NCBI GenBank assembly: GCA_016180035.1
Contig: JACPCA010000012.1
Coordinates: 1 to 12,366 of the forward strand
Length of the DNA stretch: 12,366 nt
Source of the DNA: Candidatus Woesearchaeota archaeon
Lineage (GTDB): Archaea > Nanobdellota > Nanobdellia > Woesearchaeales > UBA12501
Reading direction: 5' to 3'
The position numbers and the translations under genes were made by a program. The stretch's first letter is position 1; each line of letters starts with the position of its first letter. A model generated the notes under the pieces. The model was not told the origin of the DNA. It saw nothing but the letters and a program-made list of their open reading frames with translations, and searched no databases. Of the stretch, positions 3,139 through 12,366 are shown piece by piece.

Positions 3139-4554
3139 TCACAGTCCCAGATGCCCCAGGATCATGGAAGGCTTGAAAGGCGTTAGGTCGTCATACCCCT
3201 GCCCGGTTCCCAAGAAAAGGATCGGCTTTTTCGTGATGTACGATACGGACACGGCAGCGCCGCCTTTCTCATCGACATCAGCCTTGGCAAGGATGATCCC
3301 GTCGATGCTGATGGCGTCGTGGAACTGGCGCGCCTGCTCGACGCAGTCATTGCCCGTGATGCTCTCTCCGATAAAGATCTTGAGGTCTGGCTTCGTGACG
3401 CGGATGACCTTTTTCATCTCGTCCATCAGGTTGGTGTTGGAATGAAGCCTTCCTGCCGTGTCAACAAGAACAACATCAATCTGCTTTGACTGCGCGTACT
3501 TGATGGCATCGAAAGCGACGGCTGCAGGATCTGCGCCATAATCGTGCTTGATGAGCTTGATGCCGAGCTTGTCAGCGTGCTCTTCCAGCTGCTGGATGGC
3601 AGCAGCCCGGAACGTGTCGGACGCGCTGATCACGCAGCTCCGCTTATGCTTCTTGAGGTAGTGCGCCATTTTTGCGATCGTGGTGGTCTTTCCAAAGACG
3701 ATGACGTACGGCTTTTTCTTCTCTGCCATGGACAGGATGTCAATCAGAGGAACCTGAAAAAGGCTTGCCATGGACTGCCGCAACGTTTCTGTCACTGCCT
3801 CTTCGATCTTTCCCCTCGGCAGCTTGGTATCCACGAGCGCAGCCTTGAGATCGCCCTTGATCTTCTCGATGACCTCGACAGCGACATTATTTTCGAGAAG
3901 AGAGATTTCCAGCTCCCAGAAGAGCTCGTCAAACTTTTCTGAAGAAAGGGTTTTCTTGGTGACGGCGTCGGTGATCCTGGAGAAGAAGCCCTTTCCTTCT
4001 TGTTCTTTTTCTTCTGTTTCTTCTTGTTCTTTATCTTCCCCTTCAGCTACTTCTTGTTTTTTCTCTTCAGGCTCTTGCTGCCTTCCCTTCTCTTTCTTCT
4101 CTTTATGTTCTTCCTTCTCTTCTCCTGTTCCCTCTTCTTTTGCCGGCTCCTTTGCCGTGAAGCTCTCTTTGATGCGGGAGAAGAAGCCTTTTTTTGCGGC
4201 AACCGGCTCGGCAACTTGTCCGGGAACAGGCTTGGCAACCGGAACGGCGGCTGGTTCACGGCTTCCTTCTGCTGCCAGTGATGGCCCGCCATGATCGCTT
4301 ATTTCTTCCTGTTCCTTTTTTCCAACGTTCTTTTGTTCCTTTTTTTTCGCCAGAGTCGGAAGCGCACGTTCTTTCCCTTTTTGTCCTTTACCTTTTTGCT
4401 TTCGTTCTATTCTATCTTCCTTTTCTTTTTTCTCTTTCTTTTCTTTTTTTTCTGGCGCTGATTCTGCCTCTTTACTATCATCAGCTTCCTTGCTGACATC
4501 TTTAGAAAATGCAGAGATTGCCTTTTTCAGCTTGTCTTTGAGAAATCCAAACAT
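3139..4554 (-). CDS. ftsY: signal recognition particle receptor FtsY
   Basis: C-terminal NG domain with SRP-GTPase motifs (GKTTTIAKMAHYL; DTAGR; ...ILAKADVDEKGGAAVSV...PILFLGTGQGYDDL). The N-terminal ~270 aa is an extremely K/E-rich acidic A-domain (KEKKEKKEKED..., EEKEQEG...). Confidence 0.95.
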   Translation of the reverse strand: MFGFLKDKLKKAISAFSKDVSKEADDSKEAESAPEKKEKKEKKEKEDRIERKQKGKGQKGKERALPTLAKKKEQKNVGKKEQEEISDHGGPSLAAEGSREPAAVPVAKPVPGQVAEPVAAKKGFFSRIKESFTAKEPAKEEGTGEEKEEHKEKKEKGRQQEPEEKKQEVAEGEDKEQEETEEKEQEGKGFFSRITDAVTKKTLSSEKFDELFWELEISLLENNVAVEVIEKIKGDLKAALVDTKLPRGKIEEAVTETLRQSMASLFQVPLIDILSMAEKKKPYVIVFGKTTTIAKMAHYLKKHKRSCVISASDTFRAAAIQQLEEHADKLGIKLIKHDYGADPAAVAFDAIKYAQSKQIDVVLVDTAGRLHSNTNLMDEMKKVIRVTKPDLKIFIGESITGNDCVEQARQFHDAISIDGIILAKADVDEKGGAAVSVSYITKKPILFLGTGQGYDDLTPFKPSMILGHLGL

Positions 4555-5876: not shown

Positions 5877-6848
5877 ATGGGAAAGTTAGAACAGCCTGAT
5901 TTTGGGATTCAACGATTGCTGGAAATGTCAAAGGCGATCACGTTTATTGCTGACAAAGCGTTGGATGGCTCGGTGGATCTTGCTGCCGATCATCGCCAGG
6001 CTCTTGAAAGGTGCGATCTGAACAGGCCTCAACAGCGCAAGCTTGAAGGCATCGTTGCACGGCTTGGAAAAGCACAGCGGATTATCAGCCATTTGGCAGA
6101 ACGGTATGAGGTACGACCGTCTGGTGTGATTCGAGACAAGCGTGGATTGTATCAGGCAATGTACAATGACTTTCCATCAGGGCCGTTTTCTGCAAGGCCG
6201 CAATCATTTGTCATGGTGTTCTATGTGATTCCAGAAGATATGCATTCTGATTCAGCAGGCCTCACCATGTCATCGGAAATATTAGACGATCTTCTTGATT
6301 ATAATATTGGCCAGATTAGAAAAAGATCCCCCCAATACTGCTCTCTTGATGTTCTTGCCGCAAAGATCAGCCATCATGAGCTTGATGCCAAGAATGGGCA
6401 AGTAAGAGAATATGTCGGCCATGAAACAGGCCATGTTTTTTCGAACATATTAAACCCGCGCTTGTTGCCTTATTTTTCTGAAATCACTGCTGAACTCTTT
6501 GCCCGTGCGGACCTGTCAGCCCGTGATAAGCGTCATGCTATTGCTGAAGCAAAGGAGCTTCATAAGGATTGGGCTGCAGTCCACAAAAGAATGAGGAAGA
6601 GCACGCACTTGGCTGCCCGTTCAGAAATGAATAAGCAGTATGGGAAGGGGTATGGCGACGTTTCAAAATGCCTCGCTTCGCTGCCCCTTTCACGGTTTAG
6701 GAACGTTCTTGAAACAGGTCTCGACAGCAGGGTGCTCGGCGTAGCCATCACGCTGGTACCGTATCAGCAGGCCGAAACGCAGTTGAGGCGCATGACGCGC
6801 TACCTCCAAGAACATCCAGAAGAAGCAACATACGAAAAGCCGAGATGA
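5877..6848 (+). CDS. hypothetical protein with HExxH motif (possible zincin-like metallopeptidase), compositionally atypical
   Basis: 323-aa ORF with HETGH at about 6420-6434 and a glutamate 16 residues downstream (FSEITAEL). GC is about 40-45% and codon usage is AT3-rich (tta, aga, ata, gat, ttt), against about 58-68% GC and GC3-rich codons in the flanking aIF6 and scpA genes. Confidence 0.65.
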   Translation: MGKLEQPDFGIQRLLEMSKAITFIADKALDGSVDLAADHRQALERCDLNRPQQRKLEGIVARLGKAQRIISHLAERYEVRPSGVIRDKRGLYQAMYNDFPSGPFSARPQSFVMVFYVIPEDMHSDSAGLTMSSEILDDLLDYNIGQIRKRSPQYCSLDVLAAKISHHELDAKNGQVREYVGHETGHVFSNILNPRLLPYFSEITAELFARADLSARDKRHAIAEAKELHKDWAAVHKRMRKSTHLAARSEMNKQYGKGYGDVSKCLASLPLSRFRNVLETGLDSRVLGVAITLVPYQQAETQLRRMTRYLQEHPEEATYEKPR

Positions 6849-7841: not shown

Positions 7842-7859
7842 AAAATACCCTCGCAGACA

Positions 7860-7986
7860 GGAGTTTGGAGTAAGGAGTTTGGAGTTGCGGCGCAGTGAGT
7901 TGGGAGTTTGGAGTAAGGAGTTTGGAGTTGTTGCTGGTGGTAACGCAGCTATTACTCCTAACTCCAAACTAATAACTCCCAACTCA
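7860..7986. repeat. palindromic array of GGAGT pentamers (28-bp direct repeat x2 plus inverted copies)
   Basis: GGAGTTTGGAGTAAGGAGTTTGGAGTTG appears at 7860-7887 and 7903-7930, with GGAGT spaced 7-8 bp apart. A right arm at 7951-7986 carries reverse-complement copies (ACTCCTAACTCCAAACT...AACTCCCAACTC). GAGTTGGGAGTT (7897-7908) pairs perfectly with 7974-7985. The centre of symmetry is near 7940. Confidence 0.7.
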
Positions 7987-8092
7987 TTTCGGGTCTTCCA
8001 CCAGCATAAAGGCTGAGAACAGGGTCTTCCGGAAGCAAAAGTTTTATAAAGAAGCCATAAATTCCAGCCAATGCTGAATACGGTAAGTGCTT

Positions 8093-8632
8093 ATGGCTGA
8101 AAAAAATTCATTTACGGAATTTGAAAGCATTCATCAGGCATTAGGGGAAACGAAGAAGCTCTATCATCCTCGCCCTTCTATAGCAGGAGCTTTCCGGGAC
8201 GGTCAGAACCCAAACCAGCTTGGCAACCATCCTTCAGCGCATTCTCCCACCTCTTCAACAGACGATATCTTCCAGAGCCTCAAGACCATCAAAGTCGATT
8301 CTATCAAAGGCGTCATTGAGGACATTGAAGAGCTGATCCAGAAGCGCAACGAGCTCAGCGATGCCATTTCTACCAAGATCGACAAGATGCTCAACACGCT
8401 CAATAACGTCGAGCTGGAAATCAACGCCGCCCATCGTGACGATACCGCGCTCCAGCACGACATGATGACACTCAAGGGCAAGAAAGTAGATCTTGAAAAG
8501 CTCCGCATTGAGGAGCAGATCGAAAACTGGAAAGACATCGCCCAGCTCAAGCATGAGCTCCGGGAACGCGTCAAGGAATTCAAGGAAAAAGAAGGAAGGC
8601 TTGACATGCTCGACAAGATCCTGTCGGAGTAA
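8093..8632 (+). CDS. hypothetical coiled-coil protein
   Basis: Low-complexity, probably disordered N-terminus (PRPSIAGAFRDGQNPNQLGNHPSAHSPTSST) followed by about 110 aa of heptad-rich, charged sequence (IEDIEELIQKRNELSDAISTKIDKMLNTLNNVELEINAA...LEKLRIEEQIENWKDIAQLKHELRERVKEFKEKEGRLDMLDKILSE). The track start is a GTG at 8087; I prefer the ATG at 8093. TATA-like TTTTATAAAG at 8041-8050. Confidence 0.6.
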   Translation: MAEKNSFTEFESIHQALGETKKLYHPRPSIAGAFRDGQNPNQLGNHPSAHSPTSSTDDIFQSLKTIKVDSIKGVIEDIEELIQKRNELSDAISTKIDKMLNTLNNVELEINAAHRDDTALQHDMMTLKGKKVDLEKLRIEEQIENWKDIAQLKHELRERVKEFKEKEGRLDMLDKILSE

Positions 8633-8698
8633 AATGGACCAAAACGAACCGATAGAGTAACGAAATGTTAGGGTAACAAAATATCATGGCAGCGAAAT

Positions 8699-10534
8699 AT
8701 GGAACACGCACTCACGACTGAGGAAATCTGCAAGAAGCTCCGGCCAGTCTTCGGAGACAAGATCGGCCAGATCTACCTCAAGTACAAGCTCTGCGACAAG
8801 ATCGAGAGCAAGATGGAGATTGAGCAGGCCCTCCACAGCCTCTACCACAAGTATCTCAACAAGGGGCTGCTGGATGATGATATCCTGCTCGAGCCGCCTA
8901 AAGAAGGGCAGGTTGCCGGAGAGTACCCTCTCGGCCTGGTGACCTATGCCAAGAAAGACCTGCACTCGTTCTGCCTCCGCGAAAAGGACTGGCCCCGGCA
9001 CGTCTGCATCTCCGGCATGAGCGGCAGCGGCAAGACCACGTTCGCCTTCCAGATCCTTGGAAACTTCATCCTCAAGAAAAAGCCGTTCGTCGCGTTCGAC
9101 TGGAAGAAAAGCTTCCGGCAGCTCATGAACGTCAACAAGAGCCTCCACTGCTTCACGGTCGGCAATGAGCGCGTCAGCAATCACTTCAAGCTCAACATCA
9201 ACCAGCCGCCGCGCAACGTCGGCGCCAAGGAATGGATCAACATCCTCTGCGACCTGATCAACGACGCTTTCTTTGCCAGCTTCGGCGTGCACAAGCTCCT
9301 TCGCGAGACGCTGGACCAGGCTTTCAAGGACTTTGGCGTGTACGAAGGCTCGGAAAATTACCCGACCTGGCGCCAGATCAAGGACAGGCTGGAAGAGATG
9401 GACGCGGACATGCACGGCAAGCGGGGCAGGGAATCAGAATGGCTGGAAAGCGCGCTCCGTATCGCGTCGTCGCTGACGTACGGCGATTTTGGGGAGGCTA
9501 TCAACCATAAAGGCGAAACCATGTTCACGGTGGATGACCTGCTTGACAAGCAGGTGGTCTTTGAACTGCACAATCTCGGCGCCAGCGAGAAAAAGTTTTT
9601 TGCCAGCTTCTTCCTCACCTACGTCTACAAGCTGATGAAGACGAACAATTACGAGTCCGATGGCTTCAAGCTCGCCATTGTCGTTGATGAAGCCCATAAC
9701 ATCTTCCTCAAGGAAAAGCCAAACTTCCTCAACGAAAGCATCACCGACATGATCTATCGGGAGATTCGAGAGTACGGCGTCAGCCTGATCTGCCTTGACC
9801 AGCACATCTCCAAGCTGTCCGACACGGTGGCCGGCAACAGCGCATGCAACATCGCCTTCCAGCAGATCCTGCCGGCAGATGTCGAATGCGTCTCCTCCCT
9901 CATGCAGATCCGGGACCACCGCAAATTCTTCTCCATGCTTCCTGTCGGCCATGCCATCGTCAAGATGGCAGACCGCTACTACAATCCCTTCCTGATCAAG
10001 GCCCCTTTTATTGAACTCAAGAAGAGCATCCTCACGGACGACCAGCTCCGTGACCTGATGAAAGAGCACGTCACCTTCCAGAAGCGCGTCAAGTACTTCA
10101 AGCAGGCCTGCGACGTTACCAACATCAAGAAAGAGCTGGAAAAGCTGGACACCACCTTCAAGGTGAGCAGGGTGGAGACAAACGGCGACCTTGGCGCCAT
10201 GCAGCAGATGAAAGAGCAGAACAGCCGCCTTGTCAGCGAAAGCAAGGCCCCAGTATCCTTTTCATACGAACTAACACAACAACAACAGCAATTTTTGGCA
10301 ACAATCCAAAGCCAAAAACTCTCCCCAATGGGAACCACGCAAATCTATCGACAGCTTAAGTCATCTATCCGGAAAGGAAATGAATTAAAATGTCAATTGA
10401 TAGATTTGGGGTTAATTTCTGAAGAAGTCGAGCGGCACGAAAAAGGTTGGATAAAACATCTTGTTTTAACACCCAGTGGCGCTAGCTATCTTTCGGAAAA
10501 CCCTGAAATACGTGGAAATGTCATCTCTAACTGA
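8699..10534 (+). CDS. HerA/DUF87-family (FtsK-HerA superfamily) P-loop ATPase with C-terminal winged-helix-like extension
   Basis: The RH-x4-G-x-SGSGKT Walker A (PRHVCISGMSGSGKTT, nt about 9007-9039) is preceded by the LDL/hydrophobic context typical of DUF87/HerA. The Walker B is of the hhhhDEAH type (LAIVVDEAHNIF, about 9670-9700). The family R-K/E-Y-G-x-x-h-x-h-x-x-Q motif follows (IREYGVSLICLDQHISKLSDTV, about 9770-9830). The C-terminal ~95 aa (TQIYRQLKSSIRKGNELKCQLIDLGLISEE...WIKHLVLTPSGASYL) resemble a wHTH. It follows the coiled-coil gene after a 66 bp gap. Confidence 0.8.
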   Translation: MEHALTTEEICKKLRPVFGDKIGQIYLKYKLCDKIESKMEIEQALHSLYHKYLNKGLLDDDILLEPPKEGQVAGEYPLGLVTYAKKDLHSFCLREKDWPRHVCISGMSGSGKTTFAFQILGNFILKKKPFVAFDWKKSFRQLMNVNKSLHCFTVGNERVSNHFKLNINQPPRNVGAKEWINILCDLINDAFFASFGVHKLLRETLDQAFKDFGVYEGSENYPTWRQIKDRLEEMDADMHGKRGRESEWLESALRIASSLTYGDFGEAINHKGETMFTVDDLLDKQVVFELHNLGASEKKFFASFFLTYVYKLMKTNNYESDGFKLAIVVDEAHNIFLKEKPNFLNESITDMIYREIREYGVSLICLDQHISKLSDTVAGNSACNIAFQQILPADVECVSSLMQIRDHRKFFSMLPVGHAIVKMADRYYNPFLIKAPFIELKKSILTDDQLRDLMKEHVTFQKRVKYFKQACDVTNIKKELEKLDTTFKVSRVETNGDLGAMQQMKEQNSRLVSESKAPVSFSYELTQQQQQFLATIQSQKLSPMGTTQIYRQLKSSIRKGNELKCQLIDLGLISEEVERHEKGWIKHLVLTPSGASYLSENPEIRGNVISN

Positions 10535-10680
10535 TAAGCCTCGAGCTTAAGATGGCATAGACAGCACATTCTTGTAGTTAGATCTTTCTTCGATGGCAAG
10601 TTTCCTTGGATTACAGCGGAGATCCCTGGAAAAGGCAGTTCTGGTCCGCAATAGGCGTAGTTGTTCTCAACAGGAGAAGA

Positions 10681-10861
10681 CGTGAAAGTGCGACTGGATG
10701 TTGTTGACGAGATTATCGACACGGAGTACGAAGCGCGCGGCGATGCCAAGAAACCGAAGGGCAAGGTAGTGAAGACGCGCCAGCCGGATGATGGCAACAT
10801 GCGGTTGACTGTCCCTCTGGGTGTGTTGGTGAAGTTCAAGAAAGGACAGAAGCAGTCGTAG
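10681..10861 (+). CDS. hypothetical small basic protein (59 aa from GTG; 66 aa from the ATG at 10661)
   Basis: GGAG-type motif (CAACAGGAGAAGAC) sits just before the GTG at 10681. Translation is VKVRLDVVDEIIDTEYEARGDAKKPKGKVVKTRQPDDGNMRLTVPLGVLVKFKKGQKQS, with GC3-rich codons. No family recognised. Confidence 0.3.
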
Positions 10862-11294: not shown

Positions 11295-11360
11295 CCTACC
11301 GAAGCAACCTGAAAGGAGGATACTGTATAGAATAGAGACAAGGCAACGCGCTACCATCAG

Positions 11361-11510
11361 GGTTTTTGCTGCTTTTTACCTGACGGCGAGCGGCATTGTA
11401 GCAACCTAAAAAGCAGCAGCAGAGAGCCATTGACGGAGTATCCACACTGTCGTGGGCGGTCCGCTTTCCCAGACCTTTGACGCGAAAGAAGACCACGTCA
11501 ATGGCTCTCT
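11361..11510. other. structured non-coding region with two perfect inverted repeats (candidate ncRNA, att site or regulatory site)
   Basis: TGCTGCTTTTTA (11367-11378) pairs with TAAAAAGCAGCA (11407-11418) around a 28-nt loop. This is immediately followed by AGAGAGCCATTGACG (11421-11435), which is the perfect reverse complement of CGTCAATGGCTCTCT (11496-11510) across a 60-nt spacer. The surrounding 380 bp (11295-11683) contains no ORF. Confidence 0.45.
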
Positions 11511-11683
11511 AGGCAGCAGCTGCCATAAACGCAAAGCGTAGCGTAGCTGTTGTCTGTCCGCAGTACGAATAAGAGTAGCAGTTGAATGGAAGTGCCACCC
11601 TCCTTAAATCCGTGATGGGGCTCTCACGTCGAGAGTGGAATGGTGGATAGTCGCAGTAAGATGTATCAAGGAAAGAGATAGAT

Positions 11684-12366
11684 ATGTCCAAGATCCGGAA
11701 GACCCAGAAGCCCAACGGCATCAGCAACGCAACCTGGAAGAAGACCAAGCAGATCGCGAAGCAGCAGGGCCTCGACCAGCAGCAGACTCTGCAGGTGGCG
11801 GCGAGCATCCAGGCGCAGAAGCAGCAGAAGGGCAACGGCCAGAAGACGCTCGGCACGCAGTTCGTCGTGACGATGCATGGTGGCATCCCGCAGGACGTGC
11901 AGTACCGCATCGCCGAGGCCGCCACGGGAACGCCCTCGCTCATCGGGAGCAAGGACGGCTGCATCGTGGCGTTCAACGACAAGACGACAGCTGCGGTGAA
12001 GCAGGCACTTGCCGAGACGTACGGTGGCCGCGTGTCGATCCAGCAGGTGAACGTCAAGACGGAGGACAAAGAGGCAACCTTCGTGTCCGCGACCAAGGAC
12101 CTGCCCAACCTGGCGCTGAAGACGGGCGACGTCCAGGACGAGCAGATGAAGGTGCACGGGATGGAGATCGCTTCGACGCCGCAGGGCACCGAGCTCCTCG
12201 GCTTCCTGGCGAACCTGATCGGCGACGGCTACTACGCGGCGCAGATCGGGGAGGTGACGGGCATCCGCGGACCGGCGTTCGGCAACATGATCGACGGCAC
12301 GCCGCGCTCGGTGGAGGTGCTCATCAACTGCAACCCGCTTGCGTGGATGGAGCACCAGGTCGGCCT
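11684..12366 (+). CDS. hypothetical protein, 3'-truncated by the window end (at least 227 aa), strongly GC3-biased
   Basis: I translated by hand from the ATG at 11684 to the window end with no stop (MSKIRKTQKPNGISNATWKKTKQIAKQQGLDQQQ...GYYAAQIGEVTGIRGPAFGNMIDGTPRSVEVLINCNPLAWMEHQVG). Third positions are almost all G or C, as expected of a real gene in a high-GC context. The track shows only the antisense ORFs 11509-12189 and 11666-12355, because this ORF has no stop within the window. Confidence 0.75.
   Translation, partial: MSKIRKTQKPNGISNATWKKTKQIAKQQGLDQQQTLQVAASIQAQKQQKGNGQKTLGTQFVVTMHGGIPQDVQYRIAEAATGTPSLIGSKDGCIVAFNDKTTAAVKQALAETYGGRVSIQQVNVKTEDKEATFVSATKDLPNLALKTGDVQDEQMKVHGMEIASTPQGTELLGFLANLIGDGYYAAQIGEVTGIRGPAFGNMIDGTPRSVEVLINCNPLAWMEHQVG

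Follow-up and report, generated by a model that had tools for sequence, protein, structure and literature searches.

FtsK and SpoIIIE are ring-type motors with a C-terminal winged helix and an oriented 8-bp motif; the gamma winged helix-turn-helix (wHTH) domain of FtsK reads KOPS, and SpoIIIE reads SRS. Other members of the FtsK-HerA superfamily are HerA, known from the HerA-NurA, SIR2-HerA and DUF4297-HerA systems, and the VirB4, CedB, CedD and TedB ATPases. In Streptomyces, TraB is an FtsK-like hexamer with a C-terminal DNA-recognition domain, which reads the 8-bp direct repeats of clt and works with plasmid-encoded Spd proteins (PMC4447253, PMC5365140). Among DPANN archaea, nanohaloarchaeal giant SPEARE-type proteins combine a VirB4/TraG-like ATPase domain with a terminal coiled coil (PMC10266531). 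Here we describe a two-gene operon found on a 12.4-kb contig of a Candidatus Woesearchaeota archaeon (JACPCA010000012.1, analysed over its whole length of 12,366 nucleotides (nt), hereafter the window), in which the gene of a small coiled-coil protein, the partner, precedes that of an ATPase of 611 amino acids (aa), 100% identical to the NCBI entry 'ATP-binding protein [Candidatus Woesearchaeota archaeon]'. What is new is the 8-bp repeat element that flanks this operon and the conserved position of the pair at a boundary of genome stability, and we tentatively propose that the pair forms a sequence-targeted DNA motor.

The ATPase displays the features that define the FtsK-HerA superfamily, namely a RecA-like ASCE core, a Walker A motif, the acidic pair of Walker B and an arginine finger/polar sensor. 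An earlier reading of the window, made from the sequence only, had called it HerA/DUF87-like on the basis of three motifs (RH-x4-G-x-SGSGKT, hhhhDEAH and R-E-Y-G...Q), and these were recovered as R100 H101 ..G106 M S G S G K T113, A326 IVV D330 E A H333 and R357 E Y G360 ... Q368, all invariant in 30 diverse homologues. After Walker B, R354/E355/R357/E358/G360 and D367-Q368-H369 are also invariant in this 30-sequence alignment. Furthermore, the Pfam profile DUF87 (HerA central domain) matched the protein with 28.8 bits against a gathering score of 23.2 (E=1.6e-6), and an ATPase profile searched against PDB sequences gave significant matches to HerA only (8xau, E=3.4e-6; 4d2i, E=1.6e-5).

In an AlphaFold (AF2) model of the ATPase built on a homologue alignment (mean predicted local distance difference test, pLDDT, 82), the RecA-like core spans aa about 100-435 and is preceded by a family-specific domain made of three helices (aa 7-18, 20-31 and 35-57) and two strands (aa 76-83 and 86-93), with L64, P66 and P67 among its conserved columns. 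A variable helical linker (helices at aa 447-515, pLDDT drop at 507-521), enlarged in some relatives by an inserted helical domain of ~100 aa, leads to a C-terminal module with the order helix-helix-helix-beta-beta (aa 527-590). The isolated N- and C-terminal fragments gave no Pfam matches, the former not even at E<=10, and the identification of the wHTH thus needed structure: the MarR-type winged helix seen in the AF2 model and in the structure matches upholds the wHTH-like tail proposed before. No hydrophobic segment compatible with a transmembrane (TM) helix is present in either protein of the window, as is the case for 75/77 ATPases and 73/74 partners of the family. As a separate observation, the insert between motor and wHTH (alignment columns about 560-690, for example in P0007, P0009 and P0030) measures ~100-150 aa and includes a short conserved helical domain, NH.Q..I.....Q...GYSLD.LK..L..QGY...D...A, which looks like a UBA-type fold.

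Of the HerA/DUF87-like assignment, membership in the superfamily stands and identity with HerA sensu stricto does not. A HAS-barrel is absent before the P-loop in the AF2 model, where three helices and one beta hairpin are found, the NCBIfam HerA equivalogs score 13-27 bits (13.6-27.2) against cut-offs of 800-970, and no gene for NurA, Sir2, DUF4297 or another effector lies near the pair. Unlike HerA, the present ATPase has no nuclease or NADase partner, carries another N-terminal domain, adds a C-terminal wHTH and is conserved lineage-wide. VirB4, CedB, CedD and TedB differ from it in the opposite sense, having no wHTH, while the ATPase of the pair has neither TM helices nor a VirB4-type N-terminal domain (no match to PF03135); the NCBIfam models of type IV secretion systems stay far below their cut-offs (CedD 55 vs 600, CedB 32 vs 700, VirB4_plasma 33 vs 590 bits). 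It resembles FtsK and SpoIIIE in the winged helix at the C-terminus of a probable ring-type motor and in the oriented 8-bp repeats beside its gene, which the winged helix may read, and it differs from them in the lack of a TM domain, in its MarR-like wHTH and in a motif that is local to the operon within 10-kb flanks; neither FtsK_SpoIIIE (PF01580) nor Ftsk_gamma gave a significant Pfam match and there is no N-terminal membrane domain. The ParABS and SegAB systems share with the pair repeats flanking the operon and nothing else, the ATPase being of FtsK-HerA and not of ParA/Soj type and the DNA-binding domain fused instead of separate. Structurally, the ATPase core is nearest to DptH-C and VirB4-CTD. 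The likeness to DptH/DndH is limited to this core (15% identity). DptH itself belongs to the dptFGH operon and consists of many domains in one very large protein; no other Dnd components are found beside the pair.

The lack of a HAS-barrel and of a VirB4 N-terminal domain, together with scores below the cut-offs, makes the ATPase of the pair a distinct, new lineage-wide family within the FtsK-HerA superfamily. This agrees with the earlier statement that the pair could not be assigned to a described system, since PADLOC, NCBIfam and PHROGs gave only weak, sub-threshold matches to the ATPase domain. The PADLOC scan of the two module proteins returned mad8 (E=6e-13) and antiphage HerA models (E=2e-9 and weaker) for the ATPase and coiled-coil noise only for the partner, with the full gene complement of no anti-phage system. 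No description of the family was found in the searchable literature on DUF87, HerA, FtsK or VirB4 in DPANN, Woesearchaeota and Pacearchaeota. The nearest item in that literature is represented by the SPEARE-type proteins, which, compared by description (PMC10266531), have in common with the pair the DPANN origin and a VirB4-like ATPase associated with a coiled coil; in SPEARE, the two are fused to a huge TM-anchored extracellular adhesin, whereas here they are two small soluble proteins.

The AF2 model of the partner, with residues 19-55 disordered (pLDDT below 50) and two helices of ~60 residues each (aa 56-115 and 120-180) forming a helical hairpin at a pLDDT of 86-94 over most of its length, supports the disordered N-terminus and the long coiled coil that had been proposed for it. 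In the family alignment, a variable N-terminal tail precedes a conserved core of ~125 aa containing the motifs K..SlKe.i.dI..lI.eR..Ls and nCWrDiAlLKKELRE; the protein matched no Pfam family and has no enzymatic domain. A word-indexed search with the partner returned four relatives only, and 125 came from an exhaustive phmmer run over 1.84 billion cluster representatives; among those listed, all but one are stand-alone proteins of at most 214 aa, mostly 110-190 aa, matched over the conserved core. Run over all open reading frames (ORFs) of the collected loci with the window partner as seed, jackhmmer detected exactly one partner homologue in each of 79/82 loci, located upstream of the ATPase and in its orientation; of the remaining three loci, two have no upstream DNA. 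The gap between the two genes is mostly between -20 and +20 nt, and the pairwise identities of partner and ATPase co-vary (Pearson 0.84). All-against-all clustering of the neighbourhoods found no other family in more than ~10 of ~80 loci, so that the coiled-coil gene is indeed the only close partner of the ATPase.

Within 400-500 nt on either side of the operon, the loci carry phased arrays, mostly of direct repeats, of the motif GGAARACC, in Pacearchaeota-type loci GAAATACC, where the wHTH sequence differs in step. An initial look upstream of the partner gene had shown GGAAAACC and GGAAGACC as prominent words beside TATA-like ones, and when all 8-mers were ranked without bias by comparing the flanks, taken as 400 nt before and 500 nt after the operon, with the rest of the loci, CGGAAAAC, GGAAAACC and GAAAACCC came out on top, followed by GGAAGACC, GAAATACC and GAAAAACC; for GGAAAACC, 74 copies were observed in the flanks against 4.5 expected. 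Strict GGAARACC reaches a density of 1.14/kb in the last 500 nt before the partner gene and of 1.51/kb in the first 500 nt beyond the ATPase stop codon, against 0.15/kb inside the pair and 0-0.3/kb in every other 500-nt bin to 6 kb. With the broader pattern GRAA[AGT]ACC, 65/74 loci have at least one site in the flanks and 57/74 at least two, while length-matched control windows of the same loci gave means of 16.8/71 and 2.7/71, respectively. In the window itself there are 8 matches to the motif against 2.3 expected, a number reached by 2/200 shuffles. The loci belong to different species with proteins ~50% identical, and neutral non-coding DNA would thus be unlikely to keep a shared motif.

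The sites are mostly oriented with the operon (101:17 downstream, 43:23 upstream), and they are most often spaced by 9-11 or 31-35 nt, close to one and three turns of the DNA helix. The upstream arrays lie just 5' of a TATA-like box or between the box and the start codon, TATA-like 8-mers such as CTTTATAA and TTTATAAA being enriched upstream of the partner across loci, and the downstream arrays precede the next gene. A metagenome scan for the tandem motif returned no locus with the pair among at least 120, chance matches being dominant. In one locus (L038), a composite of ~40 nt with two motif copies, ATCCATTGCGGAAAACCCC..TGTGCG.CAGGGCGGAAGACC, occurs twice (2893-2925 and 6255-6295); the copies are 3.4 kb apart and the second is about 720 nt upstream of the partner gene.

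The presence of a wHTH on a flexible linker together with oriented, phased 8-bp repeats resembles sequence-directed DNA translocases, and a hexameric motor recruited to the GGAARACC arrays is for this reason the reading that we favour, with a probability of roughly 0.45. The characterised proteins among the structural matches are ring-shaped nucleoside triphosphate-driven translocases or coupling/secretion ATPases, and to our knowledge the characterised relatives of this ATPase all assemble as hexamers. The closest analogy in logic is Streptomyces TraB/clt: like TraB, the protein is an FtsK-HerA-superfamily ATPase with a C-terminal DNA-recognition domain of helix-turn-helix type; like clt, the candidate cis element consists of 8-bp direct repeats, which here flank the ATPase's own operon; and, as a parallel to the Spd proteins, most loci have genes for small, poorly conserved membrane proteins after the ATPase gene. 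By this analogy, the ATPase would assemble as a hexameric ring whose flexible helical linkers would present the C-terminal MarR-type wHTH domains to DNA, where they would recognise the phased GGAARACC direct repeats immediately up- and downstream of the operon. The motor would load onto double-stranded DNA at these sites and then translocate or remodel it. The sites beside the TATA box could feed back on the transcription of the operon and of the following genes, an autoregulation that would be a by-product of their position. The coiled-coil partner may serve as an adaptor, a stator or a regulator, and would probably do so by way of the N-terminal domain peculiar to this ATPase family; as candidates for partners in the membrane, there are the small, poorly conserved membrane proteins whose genes lie downstream in most loci. 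Of the possibilities raised by the sequence-only reading, the 'DNA-translocation or partition-like' one gains support from the flanking 8-bp repeat arrays.

Several points weigh against a DNA motor of this kind. The clade-wise covariation of wHTH and motif variant is confounded with phylogeny, and a subclade with an RKC-type recognition helix is essentially without the motif in two loci (L020, L034) and has one degenerate site in a third (L058). The motif is local within the 10-kb flanks and not dispersed and polar like KOPS, and the downstream genes of the window and of its closest relative (L007) do not encode membrane proteins. Moreover, MarR-type domains are usually transcription factors, so that the repeats could be plain operators. 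From this perspective, the protein would be an ATP-dependent transcription regulator only, comparable to bacterial enhancer-binding proteins or to Orc1/Cdc6-type ATPase-wHTH proteins at sites beside their own genes: the wHTH would bind the arrays as operators or upstream activating sites, the ATPase would be a switch or remodeller, and the targets would be the operon and the adjacent variable genes. The MarR-type domain, the copies directly 5' of the TATA-like box or between box and start codon, the arrays before the first downstream gene and the local distribution of the motif all fit such a role. Nevertheless, the characterised members of this ATPase fold are, as the structure matches and earlier work on the superfamily (Iyer et al. 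2004, cited in PMC5365140) indicate, all translocases or secretion motors and not transcription factors; phased direct repeats with a strong orientation bias are unusual for dimeric MarR operators; and the conservation, at the level of marker genes, of a 600-aa motor with an obligate coiled-coil partner exceeds the apparent needs of a local regulator. We consider a role in regulation alone rather unlikely.

Woesearchaeota/Pacearchaeota-type DPANN archaea inherit the pair vertically, as an operon specific to their lineage. A word-indexed search with the ATPase returned at least 800 clusters, the best 120 of which are full-length ATPases with 49-75% identity, those with a name almost all from Woesearchaeota or Nanoarchaeota. 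A single-protein scan of GTDB genomes (one genome per species) found no relatives, while an alignment-based scan confirmed them in at least 189 genomes, from which 80 loci were retained; these are metagenome-assembled genomes of Woesearchaeota, Pacearchaeota or Nanoarchaeota, a few of them under obviously loose labels. Pairwise ATPase identities (72 loci) are 51% in the median and 43% at the lowest, the median of the Nanobdellota phylum-specific marker set being 47.4% (bioRxiv 10.64898/2026.05.13.725050); between the window and one relative (L033) the ATPase is 54% identical and ScpA only 44%. In guanine-cytosine (GC) content the pair closely follows the housekeeping DNA upstream of it (r=0.95), with a mean difference of 0.1 points. 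No relative of the pair was confirmed in 2.9 million IMG/VR contigs, phage and plasmid collections yielded only DUF87 proteins at 21-30% identity (two plasmid matches inspected were about 1,046 residues long), and BFVD matches were no better than PDB matches. Marker-like identity, native GC content and the lack of close relatives in viral and plasmid collections together indicate a native, vertically inherited gene and not a gene of defence islands or mobile elements. As to whether the pair would prove to be a widely conserved housekeeping pair with known function and fixed context, it is widely conserved, with no described function and no fixed chromosomal context.

The same distribution bears on the anti-phage role suggested by the sequence-only reading, in which an ATPase scaffold of HerA type would activate the partner as effector. 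Anti-phage HerA complexes are among the top structural matches, and the weak PADLOC matches given above point the same way. On the other hand, the partner is a plain coiled coil with no enzymatic domain, no Sir2, DUF4297, NurA or other effector is nearby, a HAS-barrel is missing, and the pair shows lineage-wide conservation at marker-like identity, native composition and housekeeping upstream neighbours, with no defence island; a defence module is thus disfavoured and, in our view, most improbable.

The operon divides conserved housekeeping DNA from hypervariable, membrane-protein-rich and often GC-shifted DNA, and this boundary is sharp. The upstream neighbours are housekeeping genes, differing between lineages. 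Within 6 kb, 44% of the upstream ORFs belong to a family shared with another locus, versus 13% downstream; predicted TM proteins rise from 29% upstream to 52% downstream, and ORFs with at least two predicted TM segments from 10% to 26%. Two thirds of the downstream ORFs are co-directional with the operon, and in most loci they are enriched in 2-TM and 4-7-TM proteins, none of which is present in the window. A GC shift of +6 points or more was found downstream in 11/42 loci and upstream in 0/42. Close relatives (L005, L010, L014, L015, L017, L018, L030) share a flanking Asn-synthase block at about 69-85% identity, and the spacer of 0.7-3.6 kb after the ATPase aligns over its first 150-320 nt only, with the exception of L005/L015, whose spacer also aligns over the distal ~1 kb. 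In the clade of the window, synteny extends to the downstream genes, although their divergence is far more rapid than that of the pair: between the window and L007 the ATPase is 72% and the partner 64% identical, while the ORF running off the contig end is 35% identical over 172 aa (E=9e-22) to a 468-aa ORFan downstream of the pair in L007, for which a word-indexed search gave no other relative and Pfam no family. The small ORFs noted before downstream of the pair are present (66, 58 and 71 aa), with a detectable relative for the first one only, an 83-aa ORF at the equivalent position in L007 (39% identity over 38 aa, E=7e-4 in a small database); this 66-aa ORF, which matched no Pfam or PHROG family, is probably a real gene.

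The wealth of downstream membrane proteins raises the question of a VirB4/CedB-like ATPase that would energise a type-IV-secretion-like or Ced-like envelope machine built from them, for host interaction, protein secretion or pilus assembly, the wHTH merely serving autoregulation. BLAST clustering and even jackhmmer, applied to 821 downstream ORFs, brought together no family with members in more than 6 of about 77 loci, and VirB2-, VirB3- or VirB6-like components are consequently not identifiable; no sequence family of VirB2/CedA1-like pilins or VirB6/CedA-like proteins was recognisable among the downstream ORFs, type-IV-pilin-like signal peptides are rare (7/521), and the window clade is without downstream TM proteins. 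Adding the missing VirB4 N-terminal domain and TM segment and the NCBIfam scores of 33-55 bits against cut-offs of 590-700, we regard such a machine as improbable.

In an integrated mobile element or provirus, the pair would be a remnant or hallmark with an ATPase for packaging, replication or transfer, and the downstream DNA would be cargo. Among 150 downstream proteins, no Pfam family matches more than 2. The first 25 of the 55 families comprise miscellaneous enzymes and translation factors together with a PIN domain and several kinds of repeat domain; integrases, capsid proteins and transposases do not figure among these 25. The best viral matches are HerA/VirB4-like, and matches to viral ATPases of A32 type are far weaker. 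Together with the viral, phage and plasmid searches, the native GC content and the marker-level conservation described above, this renders a mobile origin very unlikely; it is, with defence, the reading least compatible with the distribution data. Integration linked to tRNA genes was likewise considered and rejected, as these are not consistently adjacent to the pair.

A bolder version of the favoured motor, which we deem unlikely, takes the variable DNA into account. The pair could be the motor of a chromosomal, vertically inherited system for the transfer or sharing of double-stranded DNA, an archaeal counterpart of TraB/clt, with the GGAARACC arrays as a clt/oriT-like entry site. The hypervariable, compositionally foreign and sometimes gene-less DNA that starts just past the downstream array would then record how DNA has repeatedly entered and recombined there, with the conserved ATPase gene as the anchor.

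Some loci show peculiar arrangements next to the pair. In L005 (9758-12458), and also in L010, L014, L015, L017 and L018, a gene-less GC-rich spacer (48-56% vs about 40%) directly follows the ATPase. The L005 spacer has no ORF under any single stop-codon reassignment, which led us to reject stop-codon recoding as the cause, and no Rfam family or tandem repeats. Spacers of this type are very strongly structured (z=-9.7 and -6.2 for two 900-nt pieces; 8/10 150-nt windows at z<-3 in each of L015 and L018) and may be a large, fast-evolving non-coding RNA. A structured RNA downstream as a general feature was rejected, the difference between up- and downstream z-scores being not significant overall (p=0.08) and the signal strong in one clade only. 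In one Nanoarchaeia clade (L003:9920-17770, L041, L042) the pair is followed by tRNA-Thr, in L003 and L042 also by tRNA-Val, and then by a 63-aa ORF and a protein of 637-641 aa whose class III signal peptide (MKRGQVSLFVIIG...) is like those of type IV pilins. Next in L003, the sole annotated locus of the clade, comes the gene of a giant protein (more than 2282 aa) that contains an SLT (lytic-transglycosylase) domain, an arrangement reminiscent of DPANN host-interaction loci. In L031 (7327-10299), four small ORFs with 1-2 predicted TM segments each follow the pair, and a T2SSE (VirB11/PilB-type) ATPase, the sole such match among the 150 downstream proteins, is encoded ~2 kb farther, past ORFs on the opposite strand. 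In L057, two tRNA-Val(TAC) genes (4028-4098 and 13811-13884) bracket the pair and the start of the GC-shifted downstream DNA and could be att-like duplicates of an integration event.

The features of the window are collected in Table 1. The elaborate repeat/palindrome region described earlier upstream of the pair is real, as shown by repeat finding (a 28-nt direct repeat in two 100%-identical copies and a third at 68%, with a 7-nt GGAGT periodicity), by inverted arms of about 46 nt and by a DNA fold z=-6.5. It is specific to this contig, and as a family feature it was rejected owing to its absence from six other loci, including L007. Of the structured non-coding region reported downstream (11295-11683), the structure exists and is only mild (z=-2.4); this GC-rich segment contains two long near-perfect hairpins, GCTGCTTTTT...AAAAAGCAGCAGC and AGAGAGCCATTGACG...CGTCAATGGCTCTCT. 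Rfam matched neither the window nor the L005 spacer. Away from the pair, a 323-aa ORF between aIF6 and ScpA (5877-6848, plus strand) belongs to none of the families of Pfam, NCBIfam or PHROG; it and the opposite-strand aIF6 ORF overlap at their 5' ends. In FtsY (3139-4554, minus strand), where the P-loop region is expected as ...VGVNGxGKTTT..., the first half of the P-loop is apparently missing; the sequence reads ...KPYVIVFGKTTTIAKMA... and the Pfam SRP54 match begins at profile position 13, which could be a true in-frame deletion or an assembly artefact.

Table 1. Features of the window discussed in the text (positions in nt of the window; aa numbering of the respective protein).
Feature	Position	Strand	Remarks
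Genes upstream of the pair			Band-7/SPFH protein, DUF475/TerC protein, AlaE-like protein, FtsY, prefoldin alpha
Further genes upstream of the pair			aIF6, 323-aa protein without Pfam family, ScpA (scpA on minus strand)
GGAGTTT/GGAGTAA heptad-periodic direct repeats	7856..7991		Long imperfect palindrome between the operon and minus-strand scpA
Two GGAAGACC copies	7992-7999 and 8023-8030	-	31 nt apart, abutting the TATA-like box
Palindrome CTTCCGGAAG	8026-8035		Holds the second GGAAGACC copy; directly 5' of the TATA-like box
TATA-box-like element TTTTATAAA	8042..8050	+	Candidate operon promoter element, ~40-50 nt before the partner start codon
Partner gene	8093..8632	+	179 aa from ATG as in NCBI record P0121; 181 aa from GTG at 8087
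ATPase gene	8699..10534	+	611 aa, soluble, FtsK-HerA superfamily, C-terminal wHTH
N-terminal domain, family-specific	8699..8983	+	aa 1-95; three-helix bundle and beta hairpin
Walker A / P-loop	9014..9037	+	G106-MSGSGK-T113; invariant R100-H101 just before
Walker B	9674..9697	+	AIVVDEAH, aa 326-333; invariant columns
Variable helical linker	10019..10264	+	aa 441-522; alignment columns 500-690
MarR-type wHTH	10265..10498	+	aa 523-600; recognition helix S-x-R-K-G-N-x-L-K conserved
GGAAAACC copy	10495..10502	+	In the last 40 nt of the ATPase ORF
Degenerate copy GAAATACG			After the 10495..10502 copy at 10-nt spacing
66-aa ORF	10661..10861	+	Downstream of the pair, fast-evolving; probable gene
ORF running off the contig end	11684..12366	+	At least 227 aa
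GGAAAACC copy	11697-11704		At the start of the downstream ORF 11684

Woesearchaeota- and Pacearchaeota-type archaea are abundant, uncultivated, genome-reduced and probably host-dependent, and genes kept across such small genomes with a conservation like that of marker genes are likely to be important. What was a 'hypothetical ATP-binding protein' is now a defined system, consisting of a DptH/VirB4/HerA-like motor with a DNA-reading head and an obligate coiled-coil subunit, a candidate 8-bp recognition sequence with mapped positions and a reproducible boundary between the stable and the fast-changing parts of the genome. A motor that does move DNA would be relevant to the segregation, exchange or acquisition of DNA in these archaea. 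Should it be a regulator only, a pump-type ATPase would serve, unusually, as a transcription factor, and its targets may be the fastest-evolving, surface-related genes of these symbionts.

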